Shown here one piece after another: positions 2,300 to 55,830 of a DNA stretch of 64,000 nt. The position numbers and the translations under genes were made by a program. Within the stretch, counting starts at the first letter, position 1. Every line of letters starts with the position of its first letter. The DNA comes from Scenedesmus sp. PABB004 (Eukaryota). The notes beneath the pieces were generated by a model. The model ran no database searches and was not told the origin of the DNA. It saw only the letters and a list, made by a program, of their open reading frames with translations. The stretch lies in the NCBI GenBank assembly GCA_014905635.1, contig JABVCE010000034.1:1-64000 (forward strand), written 5' to 3'.

Positions 2300-5200
2300 T
2301 CACTCGAGGCCCGCCACGTCGTAGCCGGGCATGGGGAACTGTGACGCAAACGCCTCGACGCGCTGCCGGATCGCCGCCAGCTTGGCGTTGCCTGCAGGAG
2401 GCGCAGCAGCACGGGCGCGCGCGCGGGCGGGCGGGCGCAGCAGCGTCAGGCGGGGCGCGCAGACCCCACGCGCGCGGGCGCCGCCGCGCGCGCAGCGTGC
2501 ACTGCGGCGGTCGCAGGGCTGCGCCGCGGCGGTCGCCGCGCGTCACGTCACCTGTGATGCCCTTGACCCAGTCCTTGAGCAGCCGGCCGTGGCTCTCCTG
2601 CACCTCGGTCGCCACCTGCCGGCGGCGGCGGCGGCGGCGGGCGGCGGCGGCGCGCGGCGGCGGCGGCGGCGGCGGCGGCGGCGTGAGCAGCGCGGGCGCA
2701 CGGCCGGGCCGGGCCGGGCGGCCTGGACGGCAGCGCCCCCGCCGCCCGCCGGCGCCGCGCGCGCGCGGGTGGCGTCGCACCTGCAGCACCTCGTGCAGCA
2801 GCTGCGCCACGGTGTCAAAGTCCGCCTCGCTCAGGCCGCGCGACGTCATCGCCGGCGTGCCTGCGCCGGCGTCGGCGGCGCGGGGCCCGTCAGGGGCTCA
2901 GGGTCGCAAAAGGCCACCACAACACCCAGCGCCTCCAGCCCCGCTGCGGCCGCGCCGTGGCCGCGCCGCCCCCCCCCCCCCCCCCCCCGCCCCGCCGCGG
3001 CGCAGCACCTATCCGCACGCCGCCGGGGTTCATCGCCGAGACGTCGCCGACGACGGCGTTTTTGTTGAGCGTGATGTGCGCCTCGTCGCAGGCCTTCTCC
3101 ATCTTGGCCCCCGACACGCCCGCGGGGCGCAGGTCCCACAGCAGCAGGTGGTTGTCGGTGCCGCCCGTCACGAGCGTGTGCCCGCGCGCCTGCAGCGACG
3201 CCGCGAGCGCGCGCGAGTTGGCGACGACCTGCAGCGCGCGCGGCGCGGCGCGGCGCGGGCGGGCGGGCGGGCAGGCGGGCGGGCTGCGTGAAGGACGCGC
3301 GGCGGGCGCGGGCGTGCGCGGCCGGGCAGGCGCGCGTGCCGCCTGCCCCCGTCTCCTCTGGCGCTGGGCGCGTGCCGCCGCACCTGGCGCTGGTAGGTCT
3401 TGAACTCCTCGCTCGCCGCGTGCTTCAGCGCGACCGCGAGCGCCGCGATCTGGTGGTTGTGCGGCCCGCCCTGCGCGCGCGACGACGCGCCCGGCAGCTC
3501 GGCGGCGCGCCTCGGCACGCCGCGCGCCGCGGCTGCAGCCCTGCCGCAGCCCCCCGCCGCGGGCAGTGAACCAAACCGCGCCCCCGCCACCGCGCGTCGC
3601 GCCTGCAGGCTGGGGAAGACCGCAAAGTCGATCTTGGCCTCGTAGTCATACTCGGTGCCCACCGGCTCGCCCTTGGCGAGGCGCGACTCGGGCTTGGGGC
3701 CCTGCGGGGCGGGGCAGCGGGCGCGGGGGCGCGGGCGGCAGGCGGCGGGCGGGGTCGGCGGCGGCGGCAACACACGTGCGCAAACTCGACACGAGGCGGC
3801 ACACAAACACAAAACGCCCCCATCAAAGACTGTTGTCGCACCTTGCGCATGAAGGTCGTGCCCGCGCGCGACACACACCAGGCGGCACACAACCAAACAA
3901 AGGCACTCACAAACACACGGTGCACACACAGTGCCGCCCACCTTGCGCATGAAGATCATGCCCGCGCGCGGCCCGCGCAGGCTCTTGTGCGTCGTGGTCG
4001 TCACGACGTCGGCGTGCTCAAACGGGCTGCCCGCCACGCCTGCCGCGACGAGGCCGCTGATGTGGGCCATGTCAACCAGCAGGTAGGCGCCGACCTGGCG
4101 TGGCAGGGGGGAGGGAGTCGTGTGTGAGCGTGTGTTGAGGGCGTTTGTGTGGGTGTTGAGAGTGTTTGTGTGGGTGTCGAGAGTGTTGGCAGGGGCCCAG
4201 CGCGGCGCGCAGCACGCGCAGCAGGGCGCGCGTCGTGTCACGCACACACACACACGCGCGCAACGCGCCTTGTCGGCGATGGCCCTGAAGCGCGCGTAGT
4301 CCCACTCGCGCGCGTACGCCGACCCGCCCGCGATGAGCAGGCGGGGCCGGAACTCCAGCGCCTTCTCCTCCAGCCGGTCATAGTCCACCAGGCCAGTCTG
4401 TGGTGTGGGGCGCGCGTGGTGTGTGTTGTGCGAGAGTGAGCGAGTGTGTGTGCGCGTGTGTGTGTGTGTGTGCGCGTTTGAGCGTGTGTGTGTGTGTGTG
4501 TGTGTGTGTGTGTGTGTGTGTGTGTGTGTGTGTGTGTGTGTGTGTGTGTGTGTGTGTGTGTGTGTGTGTGTGTGTGTGTGTGTGTGTGTATGTGTGCGCG
4601 TTGACGGGGGCGTGTGGTGTGTGGGCGAGCGAGCGCGCGAGCGCGACGGGCCCAGGACGGCGCCGCCCGCGCGCCGGCGCGCCTTGGGGTCGAGCTTGTA
4701 CGGCAGCGACTCAAAGTAGATGGACGTCGCGCTGACCTTCTTGGGGCCGGTGTAGTAGCCGTGCGTGAGGTGCCCGCCGCTGGGGAGGTCGAGGCCCATT
4801 ATGCGGTCATGGGGGCTCAGCAGCGCGGTGTAGGCGGCAAAGTTGGCGGGGCTGCGGCGGCGCGGCGCGGGCGCGGCGCGGGCGCGGTGCGGGGCAGAGG
4901 TGTGGGGCGGGGCGGAGCAGCGTCGGGGCGGCGCGCGCACGCGCGCGCGGGGGGGGGGGGGTGCTGGCAAGGCGGGTGCGCTCGGCGGGCGCCCAGCAGG
5001 CGGCCGGGCGCGCCCGCCGTGCTGCGCCTGCGACGCGCCGGTCGACACGCAGGCCCGGACAGCGGGCGCGCCCGGCGGGCTCGCTGCGCGGGAGACGGCC
5101 GCCGCCCCGCGCTGGCGGCTGCGTCCCCGCGCTGGCGGCTGCGCCGCCTGCCCAGCGGGCCGCCGGGCGTGCCCGCTGTGCTGCGCCACCGACGACGCCG

Positions 5201-53296: not shown

Positions 53297-55830
53297 TCAC
53301 GCGCGGCCGTGGCCGTCGCGCAGCAGGGCGTCCATCTGCCCGACCAGCGCGTCCTCGCCGCCGCCGCCGCCGCCGCTGCGCGCCGCGGCGGGCGCCGCGT
53401 CAAAGCTGATCAGGTCGTCTGGCGGCGGGGCGGCGGGGCGGGGCGGGCGTGAGGCGGAGGGGCTCTGCGCGAGGCCGGGCGGCGGCGGGCGCCCCGCGCA
53501 CTGGCGCGCGCGCCGCGCCGCGCCGCGCCGCGCACCCTTGGGCACCGCCGCGGCGCCGCGCCGCGTCTGCAGCGCGCCGTCCTCGCCCTCCTCCTCCTCC
53601 TCGTCAAGCAGCGTGAACGTCGCGGCGCCGCCGCCGGCGCCGCTGCTGCTGGCCGCCGCGGCCGGCGCCGCGCCGCCCGCCGACGACGAGGACGCCGCCG
53701 CCCCCGCCGCCGCCGCCGCGGCGGCGCCGCGCCTGCGCCGCGCGCGGGGCAGGGAGCGGGGCTCGGGGGCGGCGCCGCGTGCGGGCCACCGCGCCCGCTG
53801 CGCCGCGCCGCGCAGCGCGCCGCCGCCGCCGCCGGCGCCGCCGTGCGCTCACCGCCGCCGCTGCTGCTGGCGCGCGCGAGCCGCTCGTAGTCTGCCAGGG
53901 CGCGGCTGAGGTCATCGTTCGCGGACAGCGCGGCGCTGACCTGGTGCTCGTCGCCGAGGCGGGGGATGAGCTCCGCCAGGAGCGCCTTGTACCTGCGCGC
54001 GCGGCGCGCGGCGGGCGCGGGCGCGGCGGGGCGGCGGGCTGGTCGGAGGGCGCGACGCGCGCGCGTGCGCGGGCGGGGCGCGGCGCGGCGCGGCGGCGGC
54101 GCGCCCGCGCGCCCCTCCCGCGCCGCGCGGCGTGCCTGAGGCACTGGTCAACGAGGTCGGCCACGAAGCTCTCCTGCAGGCCGCCCGCGTCGCCGCCGGC
54201 CTTGATGGGCGCGAGCATCTCCGCCAGGAGCTCCGCGCTGTTGCGGCTCACGCGCAGCGTCGTCTCCACGTCCTCGCGGCTGCTCGGCACGGGCGCGCCG
54301 CCGCCGGCGGCGCCCGGCGCGGGCGCGCCGCCCGGCGCCGGCACCGCGCCCGCGCCGGCCACCATCGGCGGCGGCGCGGCGGCGTGCGGCGGGTGGTAGC
54401 CTGCGGCGCGGCGCGGCGCAGCGCGGCCGGCCGGCCGGTCGGCGCGACGCAGCGCGGCGCGGCGCGGGCACGCGCGGGGCGCGGGGCGCGGCGGGCGGGC
54501 GGGCCGCACCCGGCGGCGGCACGTAGCCCGGCGGCCGGATCGCGCCGCCAAACAGCACCGCGGGGCCCATCACGGCGGGCACGTGCCCCGCCGCCGGCAG
54601 CCCGGGCGGCGCGAGCGCCGCGTCGCGCGCCGCCGCGGCCGCCTCCTGCGCCTCGAGGTCGGCCACCGCCGCCGCGATCGCGGCGCGGTCCTCCGGCGAT
54701 ATGCCCTGCGCCGCCGCGACCTCGGCGGGCGGCGCCGGCGGGGGCGTGTAGTATGGCACCGCGGCCGCCTCGTCCGCGGGCGCCGCGGGGCGCACGGGGA
54801 AGTCGACGCCGCGGTCCTGTGTGACGCGGCGGGCGGGGCGCGGTCACGCCGGGCGCTGCACGCACCCACGCGGGGCGCGCCGCGCCACGGCGCCCGCCGC
54901 CGCCGCCGCCGCTGGCTCCCGGCGCGCCGCGCGCGCCGCACCAGCAGGCTCTCGTACGCCTCGTTGTACGCCGGCAGCGGCAGGCCGCGCGCAAAGTCCT
55001 CGACCAGGCCCAGCGCGCGGTCGCGCACCTCGGGGTCCCACTGCGGCGCGCGGGCGGTCAGCGGCGGGGACCGCTGCCGGCGGCCGCGGCGGCGGCGGCG
55101 GCCGCGGCGGCGCGGGCGGGCCTCACGTTGCGCAGCGGCTCGCCCGCGCGCATGATCTCGGCCCAGAGCTCGCTATAGATGAGCTGCTGGAAGAAAAAGG
55201 GCACGCAGTTCTTCACGCACGCCTCCAGCAGCTGCGGCGGCCGGCAGCAGCGGGCGGCGCGCTGGGCGGCGCAGACGGGCGGGCGCGCAGCGCGCGCGGG
55301 CAGGCGGGCGGGCGGCCGGCAGCGGGCGCAGCGCGCGCACCGTCAGGGCGAGCAGCTGGGAGTGGATGCTCGGGCGCAGCAGCACGCGGCGCAGCGCGCG
55401 GTAGACCTTGTCGCTCGCGCCCCTGCGGCGCCGCCGCAGCAGCGCGCGTCGGGACGCGCCGGGGCGACGCGCCGACAGCGGCGCGCTGCGCTGGGCGGGA
55501 CGCTGCGCTGCGCTGCGCGCTGCGCTCTGCGCGCACGTGGGGTCGTTGTTGATGGTGTCGACGAGCTCAAAGTTGAGGCCCCAGTCGGGCCCGGTGAGCA
55601 GCTCCGACGTCGCGCGCTCGACGTGGTCCGTCAGGCGGCGCTCAAACGCGTCGGGCGGCCCCGCCGCCACCTGCGCCGCGCCGCGCGTGGACGTGTGTGT
55701 GTGTCCGGGGGGGGGGGGCGTGGGCGCGCCGCGCTCCCGGCAGGCCAGCGCGCACCTCCTTGAACACCTCCGTGAACTTGCCCTTGAGGCTCTGCAGGAA
55801 GCCGCCGCCGCCGCCGACCCCGCCCGCCAT
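53297..55830 (-). CDS. TOM1-like VHS-GAT protein
   Basis: VERATSELLTGPDWGLNFELVDTIN, LLEACVKNC, RGVDFP, and a GAT region with LVDQC..ALSANDDL. C-terminal DLISFD motif. Confidence 0.88.

Follow-up and report, generated by a model that had tools for sequence, protein, structure and literature searches.

Frequent GC-AG introns in a GC-rich 64-kb nuclear window of the green alga Scenedesmus sp. PABB004

GC-AG introns amount to ~1.2% across the 121 genomes of a plant survey (PMC6310983), and GC donor splice signals are reported to accumulate in mammals (PMC2490688). High shares have been described in other lineages. In Emiliania huxleyi, with a genome of 65% GC, GC donors reach ~60%, and the authors hold GC content responsible and describe GT-biased gene models as wrong (Feldmesser et al. 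2014, PMC4028052); in pelagophytes, GC-AG introns are given as ~14–17% in Aureococcus and ~14% in Pelagomonas, figures likewise attributed to high GC, with 0.32% in a lower-GC relative (bioRxiv 10.1101/2024.10.30.620910). For green algae, supplementary file 8 of the plant survey lists annotated major non-canonical (GC-AG plus AT-AC) over canonical splice sites as 8,057/106,289 in Micractinium conductrix, 173/1,866 in Ostreococcus tauri, 496/8,087 in Micromonas pusilla and 2,139/64,228 in Tetrabaena socialis, and from these counts we calculate major non-canonical shares of ~3–8.5% for the GC-rich green algae of that survey (PMC6310983). Only 19/67,727 are annotated in the same file for Monoraphidium neglectum, a related alga, and this count may say less about the biology than about the predictor. 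Here we analyze the splice sites of Scenedesmus sp. PABB004, whose genome is given as 39.8 Mb with 78.5% GC and 7,092 genes (PMC12571836), in the first 64,000 nucleotides (nt) of contig JABVCE010000034.1, which we call the window. In the limited collection of literature searched, no report came up that combines GC-AG with the names of Scenedesmus or the Sphaeropleales, which does not prove absence.

In this window, about 13–16% of introns are of the GC-AG type. From protein homology and coding statistics, we consider it very probable that these are genuine U2-type introns, unusually frequent in this Scenedesmus-group nuclear genome of ~79% GC; they probably reflect a GC-biased drift from T to C at the donor that is compensated at other donor positions. 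An earlier note on this DNA had listed 18 GC-AG introns, every one preceded by exonic AG and nearly all reading GCGCG. AG followed by GC is indeed present on the claimed strand at all 18 positions, and 17 of them read AG/GCGCG, the slash marking the exon-intron boundary; the remaining donor, at 54135, reads AG/GCACG. As introns, 17 of the 18 are supported, 11 by homology and six by coding potential and reading frame, and one, at 36081, is doubtful and probably uses a GT donor.

The closest protein matches to the window are from chlorophycean green algae of the Scenedesmus/Tetradesmus/Raphidocelis group. GC content is 77–81% in each 4-kb bin and 79% overall, introns are 80–87% GC (0.80 in SHMT), and the three codon positions of the SHMT coding sequence have GC fractions of 0.68, 0.46 and 0.95, a composition that fits the strong GC-biased evolution proposed in the earlier note. 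Stop-free frames run throughout the window, so that open reading frames (ORFs) are uninformative, and coding regions are recognizable from codon-position composition. As an example, the ORF at 11335–13389 (-), used as a query, matched no homologous proteins because its open frame differs from the coding frame.

To place introns we aligned proteins to the genome with a spliced aligner in which splice motifs earn no credit, and did so for four genes: SHMT, pyruvate decarboxylase (PDC), a Zn-type alcohol dehydrogenase (ADH) and enoyl-ACP reductase (FabI). For each intron, all donor/acceptor pairs within ±36 nt were enumerated and the resulting peptide was scored against 8–12 homologues per gene (11 for SHMT, 11 for ADH, 8 full-length representatives for PDC and 12 bacterial plant-type FabI ORFs). 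At 11 sites a GC-AG pair was the best solution or lay no more than 4 units from it, and the best GT-AG pair was 12.2–106.9 units worse, or, at 14161, was absent from the range (Table 1). In the reverse control, just one of the 36 GT introns in these genes had a GC-AG pair within 4 units. That case, ADH intron 5, is ambiguous, with GT 16043 at -4.1 and a non-consensus GC at 0, and we call it GT because the donor reads GTGAGT. No AT-AC solution came near the best score at any of the 47 introns. The spliced frames of all four genes are open and free of stops; spliced at the GC donors, SHMT aligns to the homologues P0003 and P0006 with no gaps over 417 and 467 columns, and ADH to P0122 and P0123 with no gaps over 335 and 342 columns. 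P0122 is 370 amino acids (aa) long on a contig of 1,469 nt and therefore has no room for introns. By these alignments, 11 of the 18 claimed sites are verified, in that any boundaries but the GC-AG ones would open gaps in the protein.

Two of the GC junctions are also present in a public protein. P0121 (212 aa), the sole public match to this locus, is identical at 212/212 residues to the window's ADH exons across the junctions at 17230 and 17678, and one ADH exon matches the public protein adhA [Scenedesmus sp. PABB004] at 100% identity. P0121 corresponds to 16255–17884 (+); it begins at an internal Met and is without the N-terminal ~130 residues of its 355–370-aa homologues, the part that lies in 15204–16254. 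The absent residues are encoded by upstream exons, which are split by the GC-donor introns at 15315 and 15825. P0121 may thus be a truncated public gene model; the truncation is consistent with an annotation procedure that penalizes GC donors, without proving such a cause.

These alignments bear directly on the possibility that the GC donors are modeling artefacts, with a nearby in-frame GT used instead and the proteins differing from their homologues by small insertions or deletions. An in-frame GT does occur within 6–29 nt of most verified GC sites (e.g. at 4658, 4253, 3590, 17224 and 13651). Use of these sites, however, would insert or delete 2–8 residues in blocks that are gap-free in all homologues, at a cost of 12–107 units at each of the sites tested, and most of them are non-consensus donors, such as GTCCTG, GTGTGT, GTACAG and GTTCGA. 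The named protein P0121, moreover, uses two of the GC junctions. Coincidence is also a poor source of the motif: AGGCGCG occurs 44 times on each strand of the 64 kb (88 in all, ~7e-4 per position) and 16 times on the sense strand of three of the genes, 10 of these being donors. With 47 boundaries and ~5 tied positions at each, our own arithmetic gives ~0.16 expected chance coincidences, far below the 11 observed. In favor of an artefact is the claimed intron at 36081, where a neighboring GT donor with a perfect consensus, ccg/GTGCGCGA at 36072, lies in frame 9 nt upstream and is the one chosen by our gene finder. The claim for 36081 fails because this donor is preferred and the GC margin is below any reasonable prior penalty. 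For the GC donors as a set, we regard the artefact explanation as very improbable.

For sites outside the four genes we used a homology-free score, trained on the verified introns, that adds matrices for donor and acceptor, with position +2 omitted, to the codon log-odds. This score was negative at 27/27 evaluable verified GT introns and positive at the verified GC introns; under a prior of 1.2%, a GC donor must overcome ~6 nats by our own arithmetic. An intron is required at 8238, 39050, 41263 and 54135, since the lengths are not multiples of three and the flanking exons lie in different frames. Domain profiles run nearly continuously across two of the junctions: the exons around 8238 match positions 118–181 and then 184–269 of the Pfam FTR1 profile, and those around 39050 match positions 54–71 and then 81–108 of DUF4471. 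At 38086 the in-frame read-through scores -16.6, and the exon downstream matches DUF4470 positions 28–97. The gene with the intron at 41263 has no Pfam match. Across 54135, the Pfam GAT profile matches at 1–33 (residues 21–55 of 56) and then at 40–76 (residues 5–40), coordinates that are continuous for the GC donor given one split codon; a PDB search with the GAT-domain exons around this junction returned only weak matches (E 0.26–0.85), to different chains, that do not bridge it.

Table 1. Introns and coding regions discussed in the text. Coordinates are window positions; delta is the difference in score from the best solution in the motif-blind alignment, and values in nats are homology-free margins over the best GT.
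Feature	Position	Strand	Donor (exon/intron)	Result
SHMT coding region covered by homology	2303..5996	-		11 introns: 3 GC-AG, 8 GT-AG at top score
SHMT intron 4, GC-AG	4398..4682	-	aag/GCGCGC (acceptor CACAG/)	GC-AG delta -0.7; best GT-AG -17.5
SHMT intron 5, GC-AG	4095..4268	-	aag/GCGCGT	GC-AG delta 0; best GT-AG -14.8
SHMT intron 7, GC-AG	3471..3602	-	cag/GCGCGA	GC-AG delta 0; best GT-AG -14.0
PDC coding region	10250..14488	-		16 introns, 3 GC-AG
PDC intron 2, GC-AG	14070..14161	-	aag/GCGCGC	Delta -4.0, length equal to best solution; GT-AG pair absent within ±36 nt
PDC intron 4, GC-AG	13501..13645	-	cag/GCGCGC	GC-AG delta 0; best GT-AG -12.2
PDC intron 11, GC-AG	11460..11678	-	cag/GCGCGC	Delta -2.1; best GT-AG -16.9; homology-free margin only +4.0
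ADH coding region	15204..17884	+		12 introns, 4 GC-AG
ADH intron 1, GC-AG	15315..15421	+	gag/GCGCGG	GC-AG delta -0.6; best GT-AG -26.0
ADH intron 4, GC-AG	15825..15971	+	cag/GCGCGC	GC-AG delta 0; best GT-AG -106.9
ADH intron 10, GC-AG	17230..17372	+	cag/GCGCGC	Delta 0; best GT-AG -17.7; junction present in P0121
ADH intron 12, GC-AG	17678..17815	+	cag/GCGCGG	Delta -1.2; best GT-AG -29.0; junction present in P0121
FabI coding region	22077..24101	-		8 introns, 1 GC-AG
FabI intron 2, GC-AG	23893..23968	-	cag/GCGCGC	Against 12 bacterial plant-type FabI ORFs: delta 0; best GT-AG -31.3
FTR1-family permease intron, GC-AG	8031..8238	-	aag/GCGCGC	+39.1 nats
DUF4470/DUF4471 gene (DNAAF3 in the earlier note) intron, GC-AG	38086..38166	+	cag/GCGCGG	+17.8 nats
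DUF4470/DUF4471 gene, second intron, GC-AG	39050..39177	+	cag/GCGCGC	+23.6 nats; 128 nt
Unnamed-gene intron, GC-AG	41263..41423	+	cag/GCGCGG	+18.8 nats; 161 nt
IF-3-like gene, N-terminal extension intron, GC-AG	48882..49022	+	cag/GCGCGC	+41.2 nats; read-through -31.0; region not conserved
GAT-domain (TOM1/GGA-like) gene intron, GC-AG	53993..54135	-	cag/GCACGC (atypical)	Only +5.8 nats over GT 54144
Claimed GC-AG intron, doubtful	36081..36163	+		GC margin only +2.5 nats

In SHMT, PDC, ADH and FabI together, GC-AG introns number 11/47 (23%). For the window as a whole we used a gene finder in which both flanking exons had to score 10 nats or more and predictions were kept on the stronger strand, as unfiltered early settings over-predicted (161–687 introns). 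The filtered gene finder yielded 120–121 introns with 22–30 GC donors, 16–19 of which have the consensus AG/GC[GA]CG; these figures agree with the count in the earlier note, at least 18 of roughly 130 introns. Over GC priors from 1.2% to 23%, 15–17 of the 18 claimed sites were retained, 15 of them at 1.2%. The ~6–11 non-consensus GC donors that the gene finder also called are probable false calls, as all 11 verified GC donors read AG/GCGCG. The two donor classes do not differ in intron length (medians of 144 and 152 nt).

The context in which GC donors occur is informative about how they are recognized. The usual donor in this window is (A)G/GTGCG, with G at +3 in 28/29, C at +4 in 21/29 and G at +5 in 27/29 GT donors, and the GC donors are this same site with C at +2 (C at +4 in 10/10). 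They are confined to its strongest form: the context AG/G.GCG holds 11 GC and 10 GT donors, and all other contexts together hold 0 GC and 26 GT donors (Fisher p = 2e-5). AG at -2/-1 is found in 11/11 GC donors vs 14/36 GT donors (p = 3e-4), and GCG at +3 to +5 in 11/11 GC donors. Known GC donors likewise follow the consensus more closely at the remaining donor positions. Because the GC donors sit in the strictest context, the relaxed 5′ splice-site code proposed in the earlier note is the wrong description. Within the strong context, C occupies +2 in 11/21 donors (52%), compared with a neutral expectation of 0.868 from intron C/(C+T) (binomial p = 1.4e-4). As the observed share of C is below that expected, the constraint on +2 is weakened and not abolished; the position is still weakly selected for T and is largely free to follow composition.

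We propose that strong GC-biased substitution, through a bias in mutation or conversion, would push T to C at donor position +2, and that C would be tolerated there only where the remaining donor pairs maximally, with AG at the exon end and G at +3 and +5. Since the change would be tolerated in no other setting, GC donors would accumulate in the strongest-context subset. No alteration of U1 or U6 would be required, and an unaltered U1 could recognize both donor classes. A compensation pattern of this kind is expected on losing the +2 pair of the U1:donor duplex and therefore argues for ordinary machinery.

It is also conceivable that the splicing machinery itself has changed, at the U1 5′ end or in the U6 ACAGA region, such that GCGCG is a full consensus donor and reflects co-evolution of small nuclear RNAs (snRNAs) and splice sites in place of tolerated drift. 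The G(T/C)GCG consensus does depart from the textbook GTRAGT at +4, where C predominates in both donor classes, and the GC share is at least ten times the reported plant average of 1.2% (PMC6310983). Set against this, GC donors need the exon-side AG and are absent from all 26 donors outside the strongest context, although a U1 that paired with C at +2 would need no extra exon-side complementarity, and T is still over-represented at +2. We consider altered machinery unlikely. In its broadest form, this proposal would have the splice-site code and the snRNAs (U1 5′ end and/or U6) shifted together, with G(T/C)GCG as the true consensus and introns defined by the donor heptamer and an invariant CAG, on which definition would have to rest given the almost unrecognizable branch points; to this version, too, we assign a low probability. 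An Rfam scan of the window, covering these 64 kb only, matched 0 families and no snRNA gene.

The acceptor is CAG in 47/47 verified introns. U12-type introns have a rigid donor motif, /RTATCCTT; the GC donors here all read GCGCG or GCACG and are not of the U12 type. Branch-point motifs of the form CTRAY are recognizable in the last 70 nt of only 6/39 introns and are rare in both donor classes.

Errors of sequencing or assembly that turned T into C at donors would be a more trivial source of GC-AG introns. Nothing specific speaks for such errors, beyond the fact that extreme GC can degrade some sequencing chemistries; they would have to have struck +2 of at least 17 donors, and strongest-context donors only, and the coding frames elsewhere are unbroken, the four spliced coding sequences being free of stops. 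We find this explanation scarcely credible.

Several points weigh against compensated, GC-biased drift at genuine U2-type introns, or limit its extent. That the change ran from T to C, and that biased mutation or gene conversion had a part in it, is what we infer. A metagenome scan with the ADH alignment returned 80 loci, among which close relatives contributed no orthologous introns fit for comparison: the loci are mostly intron-less, ~50% identical and probably bacterial, and the few intron-bearing eukaryotic loci have no intron positions in common with the window. For seven of the 18 sites the support comes from coding statistics and not from homology, and the homology and homology-free lines are partly dependent, since verified introns from this very window served to train the matrices. 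The site at 54135 combines a small margin with the atypical GCACG donor, and 36081 is probably a GT intron with its donor at 36072. Finally, the share of 23% in the four genes overestimates the genome rate, because these genes were chosen after GC donors had been flagged in them.

Several further features of these introns and of possible additional GC donors deserve mention. Simple CA/AC-rich repeats occur within introns (e.g. ACACACAC..., at 4484–4589 in SHMT intron 4) and in several intron tails. A residues are scarce in many intron tails, which hold just one or two of them (e.g. 10832–10938 (-) and 12205–12356 (-)); in PDC intron 14, units resembling a telomere repeat, CCCTAAA(A) (CTAAACCCTAAAACCCT), stand just upstream of the acceptor, at 10832–10860 (-), and the 5-mers AACCC and ACCCT are enriched 10–13 times in intron 3′ tails relative to the remaining intron sequence. 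At PDC intron 1 (14217–14324, -), with the sole canonical GT-AG boundaries, the conserved CCNELNAGY reads TCNELNAGY; the change of the junction codon from Cys to Thr costs 10 score units and leaves the length unchanged. A candidate consensus GC donor is found at 26533–26670 (+), gaag/GCGCGCGG ... GGCCAG/, in a gene whose product is of low complexity and repeats the unit GGRDDGVRQRQM.WM.E.GSGRY. This segment is 138 nt long, in frame and open, with a read-through score of -13, and could be either an intron or coding sequence. A possible GC donor at 44956 (-), gag/GCGCGCAG, is predicted only at the 23% GC prior.

Assuming that one in six or seven introns is of the GC-AG type and that genes carry 8–16 introns, most multi-intron genes would hold at least one, and gene predictors or read aligners that penalize GC donors would break or truncate most gene models. 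In this window one can also measure cleanly how a composition bias wears down the best-conserved base of a splice site, and does so only where other positions compensate. Should the snRNAs prove to have shifted together with the splice sites, this alga would show, as a natural experiment, to what extent spliceosomal recognition can be rewritten by base composition.

Comparison with described systems places these introns at one end of a familiar series. They share GC at +1/+2, an AG acceptor and a U2-type donor, with the compensation that we measured here, with the ordinary GC-AG introns of the U2 type in plants and animals, and differ from these in being ten to twenty times more frequent. The GC-rich green algae of the plant survey have shares that are raised as they are here, yet lower, and those shares are annotation-based. 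As described for Emiliania, a GC-rich algal nuclear genome has common GC donors and acceptors that are still AG. Emiliania, however, is a haptophyte in which GC donors form the majority (~60% at 65% GC), whereas the window belongs to a green alga with ~13–23% at 79% GC, and the GA donors reported to occur in Emiliania are absent from our 47 introns. The GC-AG share reported for pelagophytes is similar to that found here, but these are stramenopiles with 0.1–0.9 introns per gene, for which the figures are annotation predictions, in contrast to the genes with 8–16 introns in this window. Frequent GC-AG splicing is thus a real feature of this window, and it extends the trend that links GC-rich algae with many GC-AG introns to a chlorophycean green alga at extreme nuclear GC.

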